Of a stretch of DNA of 32,000 bases, positions 8,458 through 20,276 are shown in pieces. Below the pieces are notes generated by a model. It was not told the origin of the DNA and made no database searches. It saw only the letters and a list, made by a program, of their open reading frames with translations. Origin of the DNA: Promethearchaeia archaeon (lineage in GTDB: Archaea > Asgardarchaeota > Lokiarchaeia > Sigyniarchaeales > SOKP01); the NCBI GenBank assembly GCA_046497275.1, contig JAWOFX010000054.1, positions 60,001 to 92,000 on the forward strand. Reading direction: 5' to 3'. The position numbers were made by a program, and so were the translations under genes. Positions within the stretch are counted from its first letter, which is position 1; each line of letters opens with the position of its first letter.

Positions 8458-8706
8458 CTAAACTATATCTTTTAGATCTAAATCTAATTCTTCAGACATT
8501 TCTTCCCATTGAGAAATTGCTTCCATTGCTTGATCTTCATTCATAATCTCGATCGCGTATCCCGCGTGGACAATTACATATTTTCCTTTTTCAACATTTT
8601 GTACTAAAGCAATTATTACATTCTGTTTTATCCCATCAAAATCTACAGTTGCACTATTACCATCGGGAGAAATATCGATAATCTTTCCTGGTATTGCTAA
8701 ACACAT
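8458..8706 (-). CDS. hypC: Hydrogenase maturation chaperone HypC
   Basis: N-terminal MCLAIPGKI and YVIVHAGYAI. Confidence 0.95.
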   Translation of the reverse strand: MCLAIPGKIIDISPDGNSATVDFDGIKQNVIIALVQNVEKGKYVIVHAGYAIEIMNEDQAMEAISQWEEMSEELDLDLKDIV

Positions 8707-8823: not shown

Positions 8824-9630
8824 TTATTGAGAATTATCTTGTGTTTGCTTCGAATAGTAATTAATTATATCGTTTAACCAATTAACAATATTCTTCTTAG
8901 ACAGAAATTCTATATTATTTCTCAATCTTATTAATTCTGTAAGAATGAAAGAGGGATCTAATGGTCTCTTATGTTCTACAATTTCGAATAAGTACTCATT
9001 TGTTTTGTTAATCAAATTTTTAACATCTTCCGAATTCACTTTGAAATCTAAATACTCCATACTCTCAAGTTTAGAGATTAGATTGATTAAATTAAAAATT
9101 GCACTCGTTTCATTTGATTTAAACCAATTCTCTAAATGAAAATTTGTGGTAGGAAATTCAAATTTAGGAAGGACTTCTTCATAAGAATTATTGATTTTAA
9201 TTATTGATTTAATGTTTTTGAATAGGAAAGAGGGACACCACGCATATAGTTGCTTAATTACATTAAAATCTTCCATTTCGGAACTAAAAATTATTTTATG
9301 ATTTGTTTTTAAGAATCCAAAGGGAATAAGACATAAATAAAAATTTTCATTCGAAATAAAAAATTTTCTTGGTATTGTAAAATTTAACTGATGTTCTACG
9401 TCAATTGGATTATTCAATAAATCAAAATTTAGAGAATCAGAAATATTATATATATAAGAAAGCAACCCTTCAAATCCATTTATCTCTATTCTTAATAAGA
9501 ATTTTTTTGAGGATATGTCCAATTCTGAACTTGATTTCGATTTAAACTTCAAATTAAGTATTAAATGAGAATAATTTTCTAAATTTGGAAATAACCAAGG
9601 AACACTATTAGATATATCTTTAGCTATCAT
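8824..9630 (-). CDS. Hypothetical protein
   Basis: 268-aa ORF in very AT-rich DNA; no recognisable motif. Confidence 0.55.
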   Translation of the reverse strand: MIAKDISNSVPWLFPNLENYSHLILNLKFKSKSSSELDISSKKFLLRIEINGFEGLLSYIYNISDSLNFDLLNNPIDVEHQLNFTIPRKFFISNENFYLCLIPFGFLKTNHKIIFSSEMEDFNVIKQLYAWCPSFLFKNIKSIIKINNSYEEVLPKFEFPTTNFHLENWFKSNETSAIFNLINLISKLESMEYLDFKVNSEDVKNLINKTNEYLFEIVEHKRPLDPSFILTELIRLRNNIEFLSKKNIVNWLNDIINYYSKQTQDNSQ

Positions 9631-9882: not shown

Positions 9883-10761
9883 CTACAAACCTAAAGGTGC
9901 TATATCTCTCAATCTGGTTCTATGGTATTTTAATCCGATATCATCTGGATTAGCTCCCATAGCCAAAGCATATAATTCCGTTAAATATATCACTGGAATG
10001 TTATAGTCTTGCTCAAATTCTTTTGAAAGATTTCTTTGGTTTGTATCAAACTGTTGAAAACAAGCTGGACAGTTAACCACGATTACATCGGCACCGGCTT
10101 TGATAATACTGTCTAATTTACGTTTAAGATTATGCATCCCAACTTCTTCGTATGCATTAGAAACAGCAGAACCACAGCATAATACTTCTTCTTCATAATC
10201 AATCACAGTAGCGCCTGTTGCAGCACTTAATTCTTTGAGAGTTTTTGGTCTCATAGGATCATCATTAGTTTCCATCCATTCATGTGGTCTCATATAATGA
10301 CACCCGGGATGACACGCAACTTTAAGTCCTTCGAGAGGTTTAGTTATTGCTGATTTAATTTTATCAATACCAATATCTTTCTTTAATACATCGACAAAAT
10401 GCCTCACATCAATAGATCCTTTGTATTCCTTCCCTATCTTCGCGAGTTCTCCATTAATATGTTCTTTTTTGATACTATCGTGTTCTAACTGATGTTGAAC
10501 TCCCCTAAGAGTATTAGTACATCCATTACATAAGGAAATTATGTCCTTATTCTCTTCTTCAGCTAAGCAGATATTTCTTGCTCCTATAGCAAGCCACCCT
10601 TCATCATCAAAACTCTTGAATCCTGTTGGGTCTGGGCAACAAGTAAAGGGAGCTTCTGAAGTTTCGATTCCTAATTTATCAAAAACATATCGAGTAGAAG
10701 CTTCGATGAATGGAATTCTATTACCAATTGTGCATCCTTCAAACATTTTATATTCTGTCAT
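9883..10761 (-). CDS. hdrB: Heterodisulfide reductase subunit B (two CCG domains)
   Basis: EGC...TCCP...CNGC and PGCH...LCCGS...CPAC motifs. ATG at 10761 is preferred over the track's GTG at 10773 because GGTGA just upstream looks like an RBS. Confidence 0.9.
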   Translation of the reverse strand: MTEYKMFEGCTIGNRIPFIEASTRYVFDKLGIETSEAPFTCCPDPTGFKSFDDEGWLAIGARNICLAEEENKDIISLCNGCTNTLRGVQHQLEHDSIKKEHINGELAKIGKEYKGSIDVRHFVDVLKKDIGIDKIKSAITKPLEGLKVACHPGCHYMRPHEWMETNDDPMRPKTLKELSAATGATVIDYEEEVLCCGSAVSNAYEEVGMHNLKRKLDSIIKAGADVIVVNCPACFQQFDTNQRNLSKEFEQDYNIPVIYLTELYALAMGANPDDIGLKYHRTRLRDIAPLGL

Positions 10762-10765
10762 TTGG

Positions 10766-11278
10766 TTATTCACCTTCCTTTAATTTTTGATTCACATTCA
10801 TATTATTCAGAAGTGTTTTCAATTCTTCCGTATCTGGAGCGATAATATCTGGTAAGCCCATTCCTTCTCTTCTTCTTTCAATAGCGGATTGTGAGGGAAT
10901 TGCCTTACCGTAATCATACACCGCTTTCGCTTGTTGATATATAAATTCGGGTCCGTTTCCTTTAGCGATACTTCTATTTTTTAGAAATGTGAAAATCTCT
11001 GTAAGTTCAATATTTTGTGGGCATACTTCATCACATGTATCGCATACAGTGCAACCCCAAATAGCGATTTCATCAGCATTAAAAATACTATCCTCATAAC
11101 CCAATAAAGCATTTAGAATATTACTTCTAGGATTATATCTGTATTGATAGAATTCATCAGTCACATATGATACAGGACAATTATCTGTACATCTATTGCA
11201 TTGATAACAGTATTTTATTACATCAGATCCTTGATGATAATCCATAACTTGTTTCCTAAATTCAAAATCTATAACCAT
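10766..11278 (-). CDS. hdrC: Heterodisulfide reductase subunit C (2x[4Fe-4S])
   Basis: CYQCNRCTDNCP and CTVCDTCDEVCP ferredoxin motifs; immediately upstream of hdrB. Confidence 0.9.
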   Translation of the reverse strand: MVIDFEFRKQVMDYHQGSDVIKYCYQCNRCTDNCPVSYVTDEFYQYRYNPRSNILNALLGYEDSIFNADEIAIWGCTVCDTCDEVCPQNIELTEIFTFLKNRSIAKGNGPEFIYQQAKAVYDYGKAIPSQSAIERRREGMGLPDIIAPDTEELKTLLNNMNVNQKLKEGE

Positions 11279-11331: not shown

Positions 11332-11404
11332 GTTGGTTATAACCCTTGCATGGGCAGTCATATCCAATCTATTATTTGTATTGGATATTTCATCCTAAAC
11401 CAAC
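11332..11404 (-). promoter_or_regulatory. SECIS-like RNA hairpin (eukaryote/Loki type) for vhuU
   Basis: Minus strand: AUGA(11393-11390), A, AUAUCCAAU(11388-11380), loop ACAAAUAAUAG, AUUGGAUAU(11368-11360), GA(11359-11358). Perfect 9-bp upper stem, AAA 12 nt after AUGA, and a possible 7-bp lower stem GUUGGUU(11404-11398)/AACCAAC(11338-11332). Confidence 0.8.
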
Positions 11405-11542
11405 GTTTAATTTACGCGAGTAAACCTCTTTGCCCTCCTCATCAACAACAGTGATGTGGGCGGCACATGATAGTCAGCAATCATAACAACGCACTATCAT
11501 TTCTAAAAGATTTACTACTCCTTCGTCTATATCCTCACTCAT
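11390..11542 (-). CDS. vhuU: Selenocysteine-containing small hydrogenase subunit VhuU (C-terminal Ni-binding peptide of a split large subunit)
   Basis: Manual translation: MSEDIDEGVVNLLEMIVRCYDC(U)LSCAAHITVVDEEGKEVYSRKLNVGLG*. The in-frame TGA at 11476-11474 occupies the first Cys position of the DPCxxCxxH motif that VhuA lacks. GTGAT RBS upstream and SECIS-like hairpin downstream. Confidence 0.92.
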
Positions 11543-11591: not shown

Positions 11592-12896
11592 TTAATCTAT
11601 CCATGGATCTGGTAAATTCAGACCTTCTAAGGCTTTATCTTCAAAAACTTGTTTTGCTGTATGCATCAATGATTTTTCGATTCCTGCGATATTGTGATTC
11701 GTGGCAACTAACAGATTTAATTTCTTACAAATACCTTCTGCATCAGACCAAATATGATACAAGAGTAAGCCTCGTGGAGCTTCTGTGACACCTACCCCAT
11801 TTCCTTCTCTTGGTTCCACATCTAAGGTTTTGCAATCAGGATTCACAATATCAGGATCCTCTAACAAGGTTTTTATTTGTTCGATTGCTTCTACAGTTTC
11901 TATTAATCGCGCCCAATGATATGCGAATGTGTGATGAGAAACTTCTCCGACTTTGTCTCTAAATTGTTGCAAAGCATCTTGAGCTAAGGGAGTTGCCATT
12001 CTATCCGCAGCGTTGATCATTGCCAGACAATTTGCGCGGTATATTCCCTCTGGGTACCCAGCTGGTTTATAATACATGTGGGTTGCATATGAATGTTCGG
12101 GAATATGCTCACCTAAGGCATCAAGATAATTCTGTACCTTATAGTCAGTTTTCTCTCCTTCAGGTGAAACTATACGGATATCACCTTCATAGATATCATG
12201 AACGCCATTTTTAGCCATTCCCAAATAATATGTAGGAACGACTCCTACATTAGCCACAACATCCCAATAGTCTTCGACAACCTTTAAGCCTATATCGACT
12301 GTTTTCTTGGTAAATTCAATTTGTTCATCGACTTGTTTTAAAAATTTGTCCCGTGCATCTTCATCCATTGGTTTCTTCATCCCACCAACGATTGCAGAAA
12401 TCGGATGCACAGACTTTCCACCAATTTCTTGACAAAGTTTTTGTCCGAAATCCATCATCTTTAACGCCATTTTGCCAACATCGGGCATCTTGTTTATAAC
12501 ATGAACAACGTTGCGTTTTGCAGGATCAGCAAACGGTCCTAACAAGAAATCTGGTGCTGCCAATGCATAGAAATGTAATATATGAGAAGCATACTGCTTT
12601 GCGTTCATTATTAATTGTCGCAATTTATAGGCTGGTTCCGGAATCTCCACACCCCACGCATCTTCTACTGCTTTTGTTGGAGTAATGTGATGGGGAATAG
12701 GACAAATCCCACAAATTCTTGGCGTGATTCGGGGTACATGTTCACAATACCGTCCCTCTACAAATTTTTCAAAAAATCGAGTAGATGTGATATTGAATTG
12801 AACATCCTTAACCTTTCCATCATCGTCAATAACAACATGTAAATCCCCGTGACCCTCTAATCGGGTGACTGGTTCAACTTCTATTTCCTTAACCAT
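11592..12896 (-). CDS. vhuA: F420-non-reducing (group 3c) hydrogenase large subunit, split form lacking the C-terminal CxxC
   Basis: EPVTRLEGHG, RFFEKF, PRICGICP (N-terminal Ni motif), TEAPRG and VATNHN. Ends EGLNLPDPWID with no DPCxxCxxH. Confidence 0.92.
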   Translation of the reverse strand: MVKEIEVEPVTRLEGHGDLHVVIDDDGKVKDVQFNITSTRFFEKFVEGRYCEHVPRITPRICGICPIPHHITPTKAVEDAWGVEIPEPAYKLRQLIMNAKQYASHILHFYALAAPDFLLGPFADPAKRNVVHVINKMPDVGKMALKMMDFGQKLCQEIGGKSVHPISAIVGGMKKPMDEDARDKFLKQVDEQIEFTKKTVDIGLKVVEDYWDVVANVGVVPTYYLGMAKNGVHDIYEGDIRIVSPEGEKTDYKVQNYLDALGEHIPEHSYATHMYYKPAGYPEGIYRANCLAMINAADRMATPLAQDALQQFRDKVGEVSHHTFAYHWARLIETVEAIEQIKTLLEDPDIVNPDCKTLDVEPREGNGVGVTEAPRGLLLYHIWSDAEGICKKLNLLVATNHNIAGIEKSLMHTAKQVFEDKALEGLNLPDPWID

Positions 12897-12897
12897 T

Positions 12898-14229
12898 TTA
12901 TTTATGCACCTCTTCTGTAAATTGTTTATTCTTTGCTAAGGTGAATTTCTCAAAGGTACCAATATGATCTTTTACTTGAGCTAGCAATTCATCCTTAGAT
13001 AAAGCAACATTAAATCCTTTAATTGCTATATCGGCAAATCTTGATGCTTGATCCGCAACCCATTCTGTTTGACCATAACAGCCAGTGCAGGGAGCGTTGA
13101 CCTTAATACACATACCACCGCATCCTGCTCTTGTGACTGGTCCCATACAAATATATCCTTGTTCAATGAAGCATTCTTCTTGGTTAGGGAGTCCTTCATA
13201 ATCTCTTTTTACTTTTGTCATAGTGGATTTGCTACCAATAATTCTGGGACACGTATCGCAGACATTAGATATTTCATGGAAGTCTGGATTATTTTTTAGG
13301 TATCCCAATAGGTTCGTGGCTACTTGTTTTGCTTTATCATTTAACTGTGTTAAAGGTGTTTCTGCTTCTCCTTTATTTTTTATTTGCTTCAATATGTCCG
13401 CTGAGAGATCGAATCCTGCCATTAATGGAACATTCAAATATAAAGATAAGAATTCATACATGGCTTTCTTCTCTCCCGTAGTAATATTAGAAAGATCTCT
13501 GGTTTTCTCAATTAGTTTATCTGCTCGTACATGTGCTGTTTTTGATGGACCAAAACATCCTACACATGGACTACCATTGCCAGGACATTTTAATGAGCAT
13601 CCAACACTTGTAATCGGTCCGAAACAGAGAGTCCCCTTATCGAGAATGCATCCCTCTTCATTTAATGGACATTGAGTACAGAATGAATATTCTTCGTTTG
13701 GAAAATCCTTTTGTCCAAGTAAGAATTGGACGGCACTCACAATTTGCTCTGGTTTTGGAGGACATCCAGAAATATAGGCATCTACATCAATGATATCATC
13801 TACCACAACCACGTATTCTCTAAATCCTGGGACGTGTTCTGTTGGCTCTTTTGGATTTTCATCAGTGATGCTTTCGGCTTCATGGAATTTTCTATCAACT
13901 AATTCTTGCTTTTTCCATTCATTGGCTAAGCCATGAACATTGCCATAGCAAGCGCAACTGCCGAAATTAATTATTAATTGACATTTTTTCCTCATTAGTT
14001 CTACACTTTCGTAATCCTCATTTGTTCGAACAGAACCTTCAATGAACCCAACTAAGACTTCCCCGTCTTGACGTGCTTTTAATGAATCAAGTTTATAGTC
14101 AACAACTGCTGGCCAGTAAACAAATTCCAGTGCTGGAAGAATATCTAACAATCCTAAATGTGCATTCAATAAGGACTGATGACATCCCCAACAATCACTG
14201 AGTTGCATGAAAGCTACTTTTACTGCCAT
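12898..14229 (-). CDS. vhuG: Group 3c hydrogenase small subunit, extended by a duplicated 8-Cys Fe-S module
   Basis: Proximal ligands C13/C16 (SDCWGC), C92 (GSCA) and C156 (SGCPP); two Cys-rich C-terminal modules (aa 184-225 and 324-384); 443 aa. Confidence 0.88.
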   Translation of the reverse strand: MAVKVAFMQLSDCWGCHQSLLNAHLGLLDILPALEFVYWPAVVDYKLDSLKARQDGEVLVGFIEGSVRTNEDYESVELMRKKCQLIINFGSCACYGNVHGLANEWKKQELVDRKFHEAESITDENPKEPTEHVPGFREYVVVVDDIIDVDAYISGCPPKPEQIVSAVQFLLGQKDFPNEEYSFCTQCPLNEEGCILDKGTLCFGPITSVGCSLKCPGNGSPCVGCFGPSKTAHVRADKLIEKTRDLSNITTGEKKAMYEFLSLYLNVPLMAGFDLSADILKQIKNKGEAETPLTQLNDKAKQVATNLLGYLKNNPDFHEISNVCDTCPRIIGSKSTMTKVKRDYEGLPNQEECFIEQGYICMGPVTRAGCGGMCIKVNAPCTGCYGQTEWVADQASRFADIAIKGFNVALSKDELLAQVKDHIGTFEKFTLAKNKQFTEEVHK

Positions 14230-14620: not shown

Positions 14621-15715
14621 TCATTCATCATTGTATTTATAATATATACTACACGATCCTTCTTGCGAGACCATACAAGGACCAATGGGATTGAGGGGAG
14701 TACATACTTTTCTAAAAAGTTTACATTCATAAGGATAAATTTTCCCTGTCATAACAAGATGGCATGAACACCCCAGAGGAATATCTTGAGCATTTTTAAT
14801 AGAAATATCAAACTTTTTATCAGCATCAAACTTTGAATATTGATCTCGTATTTCTAACCCTCCGTCCATAATCCTTCCAATGCCTCGCCATGGAGATGAG
14901 ACAGATTTGAATACATCTGAAATGATTGATTGTGCAATTGTATTGCCTTCTGGTTTCACGACTCGTTTGTATTCGTTTATTGTTTTATGATCTTGATTCT
15001 TGATTTGGTTTAAAAGTATTAAAATTGAAAGGAGAACATCATTAGGTTCAAAACCCGCTACCACATTCGGAACTTTATACGAATCAGAAAATAATTTGAA
15101 TGGTTTGAGCCCAATTATTGTCGCAACATGACCCGGAGAAATAAACCCATCTATATTTAATCTATCAATACTAATTAAAAGTTCTAAGGCGGCAGGAATG
15201 AGTTTATGTGCGCAAATAACAGAAAAGTTGGAAGGAGGAGTGTTTTTTATCTCATATCCAATTAAAGGAACCGTTGTTTCAAATCCTATAGCAAAAAATA
15301 TTACTTCTTTATTAGGATTTTCTCTGGCAATTTTAACTGCATCATTTGGTCCATAGACAATTCTAACATCAGCACCTTCAGCTTTTAATTCTGCCAATGA
15401 TATATTTGTAGCCGGAACTCGTATCATATCCCCGAAAGAAGTTATGATTGTATCATCTCTCTTTCCCAATTGGATTGCTTTATCTATATCTGCTGCGGGA
15501 CATACGCAAACTGGACATCCGGGGCCAGAAACTATCTCTAAATCCTCAGGAAGAAGTGATCTAAGTCCAAATTTAGATATTGTGTGTTCGTGTGTTCCAC
15601 ACACATGCATTAGCTTTATAGTTTTACCTAAAGAATTCATATGAGAATTAATCAAATTCACGATCTTTTTTGTGAAATCTTTATTTCTTAAAACTTGTAG
15701 ACTAGGAATTTCCAT
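14621..15715 (-). CDS. hypD: Hydrogenase maturation protein HypD
   Basis: MHVCGTHE, GPGCPVC, GFETT, PGHV and C-terminal GPCMVSQEGSC. Confidence 0.95.
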   Translation of the reverse strand: MEIPSLQVLRNKDFTKKIVNLINSHMNSLGKTIKLMHVCGTHEHTISKFGLRSLLPEDLEIVSGPGCPVCVCPAADIDKAIQLGKRDDTIITSFGDMIRVPATNISLAELKAEGADVRIVYGPNDAVKIARENPNKEVIFFAIGFETTVPLIGYEIKNTPPSNFSVICAHKLIPAALELLISIDRLNIDGFISPGHVATIIGLKPFKLFSDSYKVPNVVAGFEPNDVLLSILILLNQIKNQDHKTINEYKRVVKPEGNTIAQSIISDVFKSVSSPWRGIGRIMDGGLEIRDQYSKFDADKKFDISIKNAQDIPLGCSCHLVMTGKIYPYECKLFRKVCTPLNPIGPCMVSQEGSCSIYYKYNDE

Positions 15716-15842: not shown

Positions 15843-16892
15843 TTAACAAATTCTCGGTATTGGTTCTCCTAATGGCATATCAATAAATCGAGTTCCACCC
15901 ACAATTGTCTCTAATAAAACTCTTTTTGGATTTTCTTTCTTAACATCCCCTATAATTTTCGCATCTTCTCCATTTTTAATCGATTGAATTTTCTGTAGAA
16001 TATCCTGAGCATATTTGGGATCAACTGCTAATAAAGCTCGTCCTTCACTGGCAATATTGTAAGGGTCTAATCCCAACATATCACATATAGCCCTCACTTG
16101 ATTTTTAATCGGAACTGTCTCTTCCTTTATCCAAATACTCACATTAGATTTACTTGCCCAATGGTTTAAAGCACCTGAAATTCCTCCTCGTGTAGGATCT
16201 TTCATCGCATGAATATGATTTTTATTAATATAAGGTCTTAGATTTTCAATGATATCTGTCAATAAATTTACATCTGATTTTAAGTCAGTTGATATATTTA
16301 AACCTTCTCGTTTTGCCATTAATGAAGTTCCATGGTCGCCAATTGTGCCTGTTATAATGATTTTATCTCCACTTTTTAAGTTATCATCGGTTATTCGCAG
16401 ATTTTTATCCTTAAATCCTATTCCCGAGGTTGATATAATGATTTCATTTAGACTGTTTTTGGGCATTACTTTTGTATCCCCTGCAATTATTCCAATATTA
16501 CCTTCCTCGGCAGTTTTATTAAATGATTTCACAATTTTTTCAAGTTTAGCAAACTCAAATCCCTCTTCGATTATAAAAGAAGATGTTAATGCAATAGGAG
16601 TGGCACCCATCATTAATAGATCATTTACCGTTCCACATATACTTAATTTGCCCAAATCTCCTCCTGGAAAAAACAATGGATATACCGTATGACCATCTGC
16701 GGTTACTACAATTTCCTTATCATAATTTTCAAGTGGAATAGTTGCCCCATCATCCAACTCTTCAACTCCTATTCCATATGAAATTTTCTTTTTTTTTATA
16801 TCCTTTGTAATGAACTTTATTAGTTCCTCTTGAAGGATCCCACCAGCCCCATGTGCTAATCGAACTTTCGAAAGATTTTCCTCTCTATCCAT
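15843..16892 (-). CDS. hypE: Carbamoyl dehydratase HypE
   Basis: AHGAGG, PLFFPGGDLGKLSICGTVNDL, DPTRGG and C-terminal PRIC. Confidence 0.95.
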   Translation of the reverse strand: MDREENLSKVRLAHGAGGILQEELIKFITKDIKKKKISYGIGVEELDDGATIPLENYDKEIVVTADGHTVYPLFFPGGDLGKLSICGTVNDLLMMGATPIALTSSFIIEEGFEFAKLEKIVKSFNKTAEEGNIGIIAGDTKVMPKNSLNEIIISTSGIGFKDKNLRITDDNLKSGDKIIITGTIGDHGTSLMAKREGLNISTDLKSDVNLLTDIIENLRPYINKNHIHAMKDPTRGGISGALNHWASKSNVSIWIKEETVPIKNQVRAICDMLGLDPYNIASEGRALLAVDPKYAQDILQKIQSIKNGEDAKIIGDVKKENPKRVLLETIVGGTRFIDMPLGEPIPRIC

Positions 16893-16973: not shown

Positions 16974-19370
16974 ATGAGTAAAAATACCCTTCAAACTGTG
17001 GAAATCAATATAACAGGAATTGTGCAAGGAGTTGGGTTTCGACCTTTCCTCTTTAATTTGGCACGTGAACATAATCTCAATGGATACGTACTAAATAGAG
17101 GAAATGCAGGTGTGAGATTAATTTTACAAGGAAACTCAAATCATATTTCACAATTTATTGAAGATATTGAGGAAAAAAAGCCAAGAATCGCTTATATTGA
17201 AAATATTGATGTTAATGAATTAAAGAACTCTGAAGAATATTCAAAACTTAAAATTAAGAAAAGTGAACAAGGAAGAGGGATTAGTTTAACCTTACCTGCG
17301 GATGTTGCAGTATGTGAAAAGTGCTTAAAAGAGATGAGAAACCCGAGTTTGAATAGATATTATCAATACCCATTTATCGCATGTGCTGTATGTGGACCAA
17401 GATTTACATCGGTAAAATCCTTACCTTACGATAGAAAACGAACTACAATTGAGGAGTTTCCTTTTTGTGCAGAATGCCTAAATGAATATAGAGATTTTGA
17501 CAATAGACGATTTCATGCCCAAACTTATAGTTGTGCTAAATGCGGTCCAAATTATCAACTTTTTGATAGAGAAGGAAAATTAATTAAAGAAAAAGCCATT
17601 TCAGAAATTCTCGAAGAGTCCACTAATCGCATTAAAAATGGAGAGATTGTAGCGGTAAAAGGTATTGGAGGGGTTCATTTAGTATGCTTAGCAGATAATG
17701 ATGAGATCATATTAAAACTTAGGAAACGTAAAAAAAAGAGAAAATACAAACCATTTGCCTTAATGGTCCCGAATCTCGAAATAATAAATGATTATTTTAT
17801 AATATCAGAGAAAGAAAAAGAAATTATACAATCTTTTAGAAGGCCTATCGTTTTGTTAAAAAAGAGTTATAAATTCCCTCAATCAAATATTAGTGAATTG
17901 GTAGCTCCTGGATTAAATAATATTGGATTTATGTTACCATATACTGGCATTCATCACCTCCTTTTTGACTATATAGGCAAAAAACCATTAATCTATACAA
18001 GTGGGAATAAATCAAATATACCAATGGGAATAGAAAATGAGAAAATTGTAAACCAATTAAATGAAGTTGCGGATTTTTTTCTTCTGCATGACAGGAAAAT
18101 ATATCAGAGAGCTGATGATAGTGTTTTAAGGATTCATAATAATAAAGTTAAATTGATTAGAAGATCACGAGGCTATGTTCCAGAATATATACCTCTTCCA
18201 TTTGAAGTTGAAATTCCTGGAGCCTTAGCAACGGGTCCTGAACTAAATGTAACGGGAGCTGTTTTGAGGAGAAATCGTATATTTCCAACTCAACATATTG
18301 GAAATATTAATAATCTTGAAACTTTTGATTTTTTAAAAAACGCTTTATTTCATATGAAAGAACTACTTCAAATTAAAAATGAAGAAATAAAATTTATTGC
18401 TTGTGATGCTCATCCTGTATTTATTACTTCCCAATTTGCTAAAGAAACATCTGAAAAGTTTGAAATTCCTATATATCCAGTTCAACATCATTACTCTCAT
18501 ATCTTAGGTTTGATGGCAGAAAACAATATAAAACCAAAAGAGAAAATTATTGGAATTAGTACTGATGGAGTTGGGTATGGTGATGATGGGAATATCTGGG
18601 GCGGAGAGATATTACTTTGTAATTACGATAATTTTCAGAGACTTGGTCATTTAGAGTACCAACCTATGATAGGAGGAGATAGATGTGCCAAATATCCCGC
18701 TAGAATGGCTGCTTCAATTCTATTGAAAATTAAGGGGATTGGAGAGGCTCGAAAAATTTTTAAAAAAATCAAGCTGGCAAAAGATTTGGAATATGGAGAA
18801 TCAGAATTAGACACCCTTATAAATCAATTCTCAAGGGCAGATTATAAGTTTCCTGCTGAAAATATACCTTTATCAAGCTCCACAGGAAGAATTTTTGATA
18901 CCGTATCATATTTATTAGGGGCATGCAGTATTAAGACCTATAGGGGGGAGCCAGCCATGAGATTGGAAGGATTAGCAACGAAAGGAAATGCTGAAAATGT
19001 TAATTTAGAGATAAATTATTCGAATAAAAAGGGAATTTCAATAATCAATACTTCAAAATTGATAATGAATATTTTAGAATTGATTAAAAATAATCAAAAT
19101 AAAAAGGCAGACATAGCCGCAAAATTCCAAGAAGAAATTGGAAAAGCTTTTGCGAGTGTTGCAATAGAACACGCCAAGAAATTCGATATAAAAAAAATAG
19201 GTCTTTCTGGGGGTGTCGCCTATAATTTTGCCTTTTCTAGCAAAGTGAAAGAAGAGATTTTAAATGCTAAATTTGAATTTTTAGAACATAACAAAATACC
19301 TCCTGGAGATGCAGGTATTAGCTCTGGGCAATTAATAAACGGAATCTTCAGATATAAGGAATATTTTTAA
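16974..19370 (+). CDS. hypF: Carbamoyltransferase HypF
   Basis: Acylphosphatase-like GIVQGVGFRPF, Zn fingers (CEKC, CAVC, CAEC, CAKC), KGIGG, QHHYSH, DGVGYGDDG, GDAGISSGQ; divergent from hypE. Confidence 0.95.
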   Translation: MSKNTLQTVEINITGIVQGVGFRPFLFNLAREHNLNGYVLNRGNAGVRLILQGNSNHISQFIEDIEEKKPRIAYIENIDVNELKNSEEYSKLKIKKSEQGRGISLTLPADVAVCEKCLKEMRNPSLNRYYQYPFIACAVCGPRFTSVKSLPYDRKRTTIEEFPFCAECLNEYRDFDNRRFHAQTYSCAKCGPNYQLFDREGKLIKEKAISEILEESTNRIKNGEIVAVKGIGGVHLVCLADNDEIILKLRKRKKKRKYKPFALMVPNLEIINDYFIISEKEKEIIQSFRRPIVLLKKSYKFPQSNISELVAPGLNNIGFMLPYTGIHHLLFDYIGKKPLIYTSGNKSNIPMGIENEKIVNQLNEVADFFLLHDRKIYQRADDSVLRIHNNKVKLIRRSRGYVPEYIPLPFEVEIPGALATGPELNVTGAVLRRNRIFPTQHIGNINNLETFDFLKNALFHMKELLQIKNEEIKFIACDAHPVFITSQFAKETSEKFEIPIYPVQHHYSHILGLMAENNIKPKEKIIGISTDGVGYGDDGNIWGGEILLCNYDNFQRLGHLEYQPMIGGDRCAKYPARMAASILLKIKGIGEARKIFKKIKLAKDLEYGESELDTLINQFSRADYKFPAENIPLSSSTGRIFDTVSYLLGACSIKTYRGEPAMRLEGLATKGNAENVNLEINYSNKKGISIINTSKLIMNILELIKNNQNKKADIAAKFQEEIGKAFASVAIEHAKKFDIKKIGLSGGVAYNFAFSSKVKEEILNAKFEFLEHNKIPPGDAGISSGQLINGIFRYKEYF

Positions 19371-19538
19371 GAATCCTATTATCGAAGGTTTTTAATTACT
19401 AAATACTATTTTTGAAGAATTTATTTTTTTAGAAAAGATTGTATATAATATAGTTAAATTCTACTCATTCTCATCATAAGAGTTTAAGGATTTAAATAAA
19501 AAGAAGTTGAAATATAAACTAAAACTTAAGTGAAAAAA

Positions 19539-20276
19539 ATGGTTGAAATTATTGAATACGTAAATGGTTTTTTAACGATTCTTTTCGTTGTTATCTCCGT
19601 ATTAATTGGATTGATAATTATAAATAAATATCGTGGAAAGAAGCAAAAACAATTCCTCTATTTTGGTCTATTCTGGGCTGGAATGACAACACCATGGTGG
19701 CCTCAAATCGTAATATTCCTGAATTTTTTAATCACTGGAATGGTAATTGAAATGGATTTCTGGGTTATATTAGGAGTCGCCTTCCTACCCTTTACAGTAA
19801 TCGTGGGAGTAATGGCTTATTTAATTGTCTTACCTATTAAACCAAATAAAAAGAATATCATTAGAGCGATAACCTATACTCCAAATATTCTCTATGAAAT
19901 TTTCTTACTGATTGCAATATTCTTAAATAATATTACTATTTGGATAGCTGATCACGATCCTTTAGCAGAAGGAGGAGCTTTTATAATTGATTGGTCTTAT
20001 TTTAGTATTCCATACTTTATTTTAAGTCTTATATTTTTCTTAATCTTTGGAATTTGGTTTTCAAGATTATCAATGAAATCAGATAACTCAGAGGTAAGAT
20101 TAAAAGGAAAATTCTTATTTATCGCTTTTATCTCGTTTGCTATTGGAACTATGATAGATTTTATAATCCCTGATCCGATAATTTATACGATAGCAAGACT
20201 CATACTGCTTTCAAGTTCACTCGAATTTTATATGGGGTTGCTGCTTCCGAAGTGGGTTACTAGATCTCGAACTTAA
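19539..20276 (+). CDS. Stand-alone seven-transmembrane protein of unknown function
   Basis: Seven hydrophobic segments with short loops and no soluble domain. ATG at 19539 used; the track starts at GTG 19530. Confidence 0.7.
   Translation: MVEIIEYVNGFLTILFVVISVLIGLIIINKYRGKKQKQFLYFGLFWAGMTTPWWPQIVIFLNFLITGMVIEMDFWVILGVAFLPFTVIVGVMAYLIVLPIKPNKKNIIRAITYTPNILYEIFLLIAIFLNNITIWIADHDPLAEGGAFIIDWSYFSIPYFILSLIFFLIFGIWFSRLSMKSDNSEVRLKGKFLFIAFISFAIGTMIDFIIPDPIIYTIARLILLSSSLEFYMGLLLPKWVTRSRT

Follow-up and report, generated by a model that had tools for sequence, protein, structure and literature searches.

The hydrogenase peptide VhuU encoded in a 32,000-nucleotide stretch of DNA from a Promethearchaeia archaeon (the window) carries a cysteine, C22, directly before the selenocysteine that occupies the terminal Ni ligand position, U23, where other hydrogenases have a near-invariant proline. 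A preliminary description of this DNA held that this Pro-to-Cys change beside the Ni-ligating Sec makes the active-site peptide non-canonical, and for the C-terminal Ni-binding motif the comparison with relatives bears that out. The sequences of the relatives make it very probable that the substitution took place in, or close to, the common ancestor of the Asgard Vhu clade and was then kept by purifying selection, as a clade-wide selected substitution. D-C-U marks a variant form of a known enzyme, shared across the clade; it is neither a new type of system nor particular to this window.

The vhuU gene, its recoding signal and its operon

In this [NiFeSe] hydrogenase the large subunit is split, and VhuU is its Sec-bearing C-terminal part. 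The features of the gene and of its neighbourhood are:

11390–11542, minus strand: vhuU, 50 codons plus the UGA stop (from translation, relatives and solved C-termini)
11465–11488, minus strand: the peptide C19-Y-D-C22-U23-L-S-C26 (from the sequence)
11486–11488, minus strand: C19 codon, TGT; Ala, Ser or Cys in other group 3 enzymes
11477–11479, minus strand: C22 codon, TGC; takes the place of the near-invariant Pro of D-P-C/U
11474–11476, minus strand: U23, UGA read as selenocysteine; terminal Ni ligand position
11465–11467, minus strand: C26 codon, second (bridging) ligand of U-x-x-C; invariant in 134/134 DNA versions
11456–11458, minus strand: H29 codon, motif end and expected maturation-protease cleavage point, as judged from the family
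11332–11404, minus strand: lokiSECIS, overlapping the vhuU stop codon, with compensatory changes (described by Mariotti 2016)
11592–12896, minus strand: vhuA, large subunit without C-terminal CxxC, 434 aa (PF00374, 5.2e-28)
12898–14229, minus strand: vhuG, small subunit, 443 aa (PF01058)
10766–11278, minus strand: hdrC, directly downstream of vhuU (Pfam)
9883–10773, minus strand: hdrB, downstream of vhuU after hdrC (Pfam)
8458–8706, minus strand: hypC (Pfam)
14621–15715, minus strand: hypD maturation gene (Pfam)
15843–16892, minus strand: hypE maturation gene (Pfam)
16974–19370, plus strand: hypF maturation gene (Pfam)
G000:C100:67390-71765, elsewhere in the same genome: second Vhu-Hdr operon, in the order vhuG-vhuA-hdrC-hdrB-vhuU

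The vhuU reading frame runs from the M1 codon at 11540–11542 to the stop UGA at 11390–11392. The reverse complement of 11465–11488, TGT TAT GAT TGC TGA CTA TCA TGT, reads C19 Y20 D21 C22 U23 L24 S25 C26, in agreement with the preliminary description, which had placed C19, C22, U23 and C26 in this peptide. VhuU can be aligned with the C-terminal ends of MvhA (5odc_F, 9sw2_F) and FrhA and with the solved 27-residue VhuU chain 9sfi_M, and the peptide is therefore the VhuU of a group 3c large subunit. As is typical of VhuU, the ORF of about 50 codons follows a truncated large-subunit gene and has UGA at the terminal Ni-ligand position. The C-terminal family motif D-P-[CU]-x-x-C-x-x-H is present at D, U, C and H, with C at the position of P; since all four metal ligands are intact, the enzyme is still placed in the hydrogenase family, as a motif variant. 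Going by its genes, the system is almost certainly a group 3c (Mvh/Vhu-type, Hdr-linked) [NiFeSe] hydrogenase of an Asgard (Promethearchaeota) archaeon. H29 is the predicted last residue of mature VhuU; the 21 residues beyond it would be an extension that the protease removes, and they are present and conserved among relatives.

The lokiSECIS consists of AUGA, a perfect 9-bp stem (AUAUCCAAU / AUUGGAUAU) with an 11-nt loop that is A-rich at its start and has AG at its end, and then GA. The UGA within its AUGA is the vhuU stop codon. In a lower helix the last vhuU codons, GUUGGUU (part of N-V-G-L-G), pair with AACCAAC 60 nt downstream, and a small conserved GCCC/GGG hairpin lies between the two strands; the conservation of the last residues of the cleaved-off extension is probably due to this pairing. 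Among 16 diverse relatives, 12 of the 17 predicted pairs exhibit changes on both sides that keep the pairing. The genome also encodes SepSecS (381 bits), and a tRNA-Sec lies on the same contig as vhuU (49.4 bits, above the Rfam cut-off); the Rfam model found this tRNA whereas ARAGORN found no tRNA-Sec. The gene is present in 58 of 61 related genomes, each time with a single in-frame TGA. On the strength of the lokiSECIS, SepSecS, the tRNA-Sec and the single in-frame TGA in relatives, we read the UGA of vhuU as a genuine Sec codon. The lokiSECIS, including its overlap with the stop codon in VhuU.1, was reported by Mariotti et al. 2016 (PMC4989117); the Lokiarchaeota VhuU described there belongs to the same gene family and has the same signal, AUGA/stop overlap included, and the gene itself does not differ from the vhuU of the window.

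The order on the minus strand is vhuG, vhuA, vhuU, hdrC, hdrB, with hypC, hypD, hypE and hypF on the flanks. No vhuD/mvhD or hdrA was found among the window ORFs scanned with Pfam. The N-terminal motif of VhuA, R-I-C-G-I-C-P-I-P-H-H, is intact, its C62 and C65 are invariant among 74 aligned sequences, and the proton-transfer Glu is present in V-T-R-L-E-G-H. The AlphaFold model of a fused relative, L051, rather than of the window protein, has 7t2r_D and 5odc_F as its best structure matches (TM 0.85/0.93 against 5odc_F). VhuG is long for a small subunit at 443 aa, and it contains an internal repeat of a Cys-rich Fe-S module (residues ∼190–241 versus 349–400, 33% identity, E = 1e-12). Two ORFs beside the hyp and hdr genes, 8824–9630 (minus strand, 268 aa) and 19530–20276 (plus strand, 248 aa), have no Pfam match.

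The second Vhu-Hdr operon is 96% identical to that of the window in VhuA, as compared to 84% in VhuU, 62% in HdrB, 56% in HdrC and 49% in VhuG. This disparity in sequence identity points to recent gene conversion of vhuA between operons that are themselves old paralogues. The two gene orders are each found repeatedly in the family, with hdrB before vhuU in L004, L005, L008, L010, L017–L020 and L029.

Cysteine before selenocysteine in Asgard archaea

The preliminary description had taken proline to be strongly conserved in the canonical motif, and the relatives outside the Asgard archaea agree. A search of the full library with a natural fused D-C-C relative as query yielded 84 full-length non-Asgard homologues with a complete motif, of which 82 have D-P-C, two D-L-C and none D-C-C. 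Position by position, these relatives have R (83/84), then A (46), C (12) or S (11), then Y (63) or F (20), then D, then P (82/84). Several truncated homologues end in ...Y-D-P, as expected of D-P-U selenoproteins cut at UGA, and the solved relatives are all D-P-C or D-P-U (R-A-Y-D-P-C type).

Within the family of the window gene, all 30 loci and the second copy in the same genome have R-C-[YF]-D-C-U-L-S-C-A-A-H. For an unbiased view we scanned 400 Asgard genomes with a 30-nt degenerate pattern for [YF]-D-x-U-x-S-C-x-x-H that leaves the residue before U free. The pattern matched in 195 of the 400 genomes, and a reversed control pattern gave 0 matches. Among the 150 matches listed, Cys (TGT or TGC) precedes Sec in 146, so that C22 is conserved where the preliminary description had asked for an alignment of relatives; the exceptions are Pro, Asn and Phe. 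Cys also predominates before Sec in the class's other families, the exceptions being Pro in two genomes of one genus, Asn in one and Phe in three, and in a distant family from five further genomes Cys precedes Sec in 10/10. A Cys-type pattern applied to the same 400 genomes found D-P-C in 146 of the 150 matches listed and D-C-C in only two, both of which are Sec-to-Cys versions of VhuU itself. The other Asgard hydrogenases thus keep D-P-C, and the change is specific to the VhuU orthologue, not a compositional habit.

A scan for the D-C-U pattern in one genome per species (185,579 species) found at least 118 stretches, almost exclusively in Asgard-labelled MAGs. The titles of the matches name Promethearchaeota, Thor-, Hel-, Hod-, Jord- and Atabeyarchaeia MAGs or 'uncultured archaeon', Loki- is also covered, and a Promethearchaeum-labelled MAG is among them. 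Five matches have bacterial labels, and of the four inspected one (L093) is a chance match, one (L064) is apparently a contig of an Asgard genome, and two (L059, SLSH01000336.1; L085, DATKTW010000156.1) carry an Asgard-type vhuU, which makes it probable that these two are mis-binned or mislabelled. The bacterial labels include Bacteroidales (L059), Nanopelagicaceae (L085) and Mariniphaga (L104, DASRQG010000184.1, matched by the pattern).

The codons of C22 were counted in 134 distinct DNA versions, a sample enriched for D-C-U since it was partly fetched by that pattern; 127 of these encode Cys, 86 as TGC and 41 as TGT. The use of both codons indicates that the residue is kept through synonymous turnover. 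VhuU identity drops to ∼40% across the phylum, yet Cys before Sec stays at ∼97%. Three independent Sec-to-Cys versions (L045, L051, L175) also keep Cys at position 22. In a quick maximum-likelihood search with SH-aLRT as the only support measure, 34 Asgard VhuA fall into a single clade (SH-aLRT 100) to which none of the 40 D-P-C representatives belongs, and the Pro, Phe and Asn exceptions are nested inside this clade or basal in it, a placement that points to one early gain of Cys and a few later losses. That the motif is an artefact or belongs to a pseudogene has practically no probability: conservation extends to the ORF, the SECIS and the operon, and nothing was seen in support of an artefact. 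The sequencing error that the preliminary description had named as a possible objection does not apply, as more than 120 distinct DNA versions, taken from assemblies made independently, share the motif.

Position 19 behaves differently. The preliminary description had presented the change of Ala to Cys at this position as part of the departure from the canonical motif. The Cys is indeed there, but it is not unusual, occurring as R-C-[YF]-D-P-C in the 12 of 84 non-Asgard relatives counted above. Several Asgard families that keep C22 have N, I, S or G at position 19; in the D-C-U-biased sample C19 is found in 121 and C22 in 127 of the 134 Asgard DNA versions. Of the two cysteines in the CxxC proposed earlier, C19 is the less conserved. 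With position 19 polymorphic inside and outside the Asgard archaea, the alignments identify the C22-U23 dyad as the conserved novelty, rather than a CxxC, and C19 as a frequent but optional neighbour. In the L051 model position 19 is the last residue of helix 451–463 and positions 21–22 lie in the following loop, in a region where the model is uncertain (pLDDT ∼67 at the motif, under 50 after it).

Two cysteines of VhuA, C155 (12430–12432, minus strand) and C390 (11725–11727, minus strand), are nearly Asgard-specific, being present in 31/34 and 27/34 Asgard VhuA versus 1/40 each in other group 3 enzymes. C390 appeared to co-vary with C19 in the first 34 VhuA/VhuU pairs, and this was gone in a wider sample, which contained 66 (C,C), 32 (C,non-C), 4 (non-C,C) and 8 (non-C,non-C) pairs; with these counts we take the initial association to be a lineage effect. 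C155 was rejected as a partner of C22, since the Pro and Phe exceptions still have it and some D-C-U lineages have lost it. No interpretable VhuA column changed consistently in all three lineages that lack C22. The His of P-R-G-x-x-x-H, invariant in 40/40 non-Asgard enzymes, is Tyr in 30/34 Asgard VhuA (Y380 in the window, 11755–11757, minus strand); His, Asn or Asp adjoins this Tyr, and four lineages outside the order keep His. The change from His to Tyr does not coincide with that from Pro to Cys, as the N-C-U lineages keep His.

A metagenomic large-subunit homologue (L178:296-1687) has ...L-L-E-M-T-V-R-C-F-G-W as its last residues before a TAG, and the 56 bases left downstream on its short contig encode no CxxC. 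This homologue (P0006/L178) looked at first like another variant of the motif and was set aside; it may be degenerate or split in a different way.

Possible roles of the cysteine beside selenium

As possible functions the preliminary description had offered a selenenyl-sulfide or disulfide for protection or redox switching, a hand-off site for Ni or Se during maturation, and altered Ni coordination. Our tentative preference, drawn by analogy, is that C22 serves as a protective, resolving thiol beside the Ni-bound selenolate. U23 and C26 would bind Ni as in other enzymes, and C22 would be a second-sphere thiol, not a normal Ni ligand, yet within reach of selenium; the residue immediately preceding a ligand does not readily coordinate that metal as well. 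On oxidation of the selenolate to Se-OH, the adjacent C22 thiol would condense with it to form a selenenyl-sulfide, which would prevent over-oxidation to seleninate. The Se-S bond would be easily re-reduced, perhaps through C19, the last residue of the helix before it, and reactivation would be quick. In thioredoxin reductase a selenenyl-sulfide forms between neighbouring Cys and Sec residues, as an eight-membered ring, and in the Desulfovibrio [NiFeSe] enzymes Sec is mobile and is oxidised in air. We favour the protective thiol on account of this selenium and thiol chemistry, of the engineered second-sphere Cys V74C, which speeds reactivation after O2 (PMC11023054), and of the Cys-Sec selenenyl-sulfide shuttle proposed in HdrA of the same super-complex (PMC13518236). 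Several observations count against it. No partner Cys co-varies with C22, and the Phe, Asn and Pro lineages keep Sec and the rest of the motif, so that a thiol at position 22 is dispensable. In an extended D-x-U stretch, moreover, the side chain at i−1 normally points away from that at i. Pro is equally conserved elsewhere without such chemistry, and conservation alone is thus no proof of a chemical role.

Almost as probable as a protective thiol is an explanation by structural or electronic tuning alone. Here the loss of Pro would be what matters, through a backbone N-H beside the selenolate and a relaxed geometry; Cys would be a small residue fixed in the ancestor, its thiol chemically idle. 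The lineages with Phe, Asn or Pro at position 22, the lack of a co-varying partner and the conservation of Pro in other enzymes all fit this explanation, as does the persistence of C22 whether the ligand is Sec or Cys, and further clade-specific substitutions at conserved sites indicate that the whole active-site shell has drifted. It accounts less well for the retention of one residue at ∼97%, through synonymous turnover, in a peptide that is otherwise so divergent, and a free thiol beside a selenol is reactive whether selected for or not. We consider it rather improbable that the cysteines handle metal during maturation, with C19, C22, U23 and C26 of the free peptide forming a four-chalcogen site that captures Ni from HypA/HypB, or holds it, before VhuA docking and cleavage of the extension. 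VhuU is a separate small peptide that needs metallation and assembly, hypCDEF surround the operon, most Asgard versions in the D-C-U-biased sample have both C19 and C22, and CxxC-type Ni sites are known in HypB; but the equally split methanococcal VhuU (9sfi_M) has A and P at these positions, the fused Asgard L051 has C22 with G at position 19, and several lineages lose C19 and keep C22. There is very little chance that a UGY codon is kept before UGA for better Sec insertion or less termination and not for the residue it encodes. Codon context does affect UGA recoding in other systems and the C22 codon lies directly 5' of UGA, yet TGT and TGC are both in use, other lineages manage with a codon for Phe, Asn or Pro, and the three D-C-C versions, which arose independently from UGA, retain Cys 22 and largely exclude such an effect.

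The protective thiol might be taken a step further. In Asgard Vhu the Cys-Sec pair, together with C19, could act as a redox relay at the Ni site in which a selenenyl-sulfide reversibly lifts Se off Ni on oxidation; this more specific proposal we regard as doubtful. If true, the relay would be a natural self-protecting on/off switch, and we know of no such switch in any [NiFe] or [NiFeSe] hydrogenase.

Relation to known enzymes and significance

The nearest solved counterparts share the architecture and not the cysteine. Methanogen VhuU (9sfi_M) is likewise a split Sec peptide that completes VhuA, with the motif R-x-Y-D-x-U-x-S-C-A-A-H; it has A and P where the window protein has C19 and C22, and its SECIS type differs. 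MvhA of Methanothermococcus thermolithotrophicus (5odc chain F, group 3c [NiFe]) has the same fold and an Hdr-linked context, but is unsplit, with Cys for Sec in R-A-Y-D-P-C-L-S-C-A-T-H.

In the periplasmic [NiFeSe] enzymes, Se-S bonds involve an extra sulfur on another ligand, not a vicinal Cys. These enzymes, from Desulfovibrio vulgaris Hildenborough and Desulfomicrobium baculatum (5jsh, 1cc1), also use Sec as the terminal Ni ligand, where it guards against irreversible oxidation; unlike the window enzyme they belong to group 1a, are unsplit and have D-P-U. The G-C-U-G centre of thioredoxin reductase has adjacent Cys and Sec able to form the selenenyl-sulfide ring, as C22-U23, but it sits on a flexible, metal-free tail and is reduced by a partner CxxxxC/FAD, whereas the Sec of the window protein is a buried Ni ligand. 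Membership in the thioredoxin-reductase family was rejected, as C22-U23 is internal to the metal-binding motif of a hydrogenase fold, and the analogy is a chemical one only. The V74C variant of the Solidesulfovibrio fructosivorans [NiFe] hydrogenase (4ueq; PMC11023054) resembles C22 in having an extra Cys in the second Ni sphere; it differs in being engineered, in lying next to the N-terminal CxxC and in belonging to a group 1 enzyme.

The gene was described in 2016 together with its Sec and SECIS, and the Pro-to-Cys substitution has apparently not been discussed. The motif is described only as UxxC in PMC4989117, PMC11227280, PMC13188914 and PMC11291895, and we found no mention of the Cys-for-Pro change in the literature searched, which did not extend to supplementary alignments or subscription journals.

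The residue before the Ni-ligating Cys or Sec ranks among the most conserved positions of [NiFe] hydrogenases. A phylum-wide natural Cys at this position provides a defined target for the question of how the protein shell controls O2 damage and reactivation of a Ni-Se site, with a bearing on hydrogenase engineering and selenoprotein chemistry. The question is directly testable, as cultured Asgard relatives carry the same motif (the Promethearchaeum-labelled MAG is among the matches) and Methanococcus maripaludis, which has the D-P-U version, can serve as a Sec-competent host amenable to genetic manipulation. This enzyme is, moreover, the Hdr-linked hydrogenase of the closest archaeal relatives of eukaryotes, a lineage whose syntrophy models give H2 exchange a central place.
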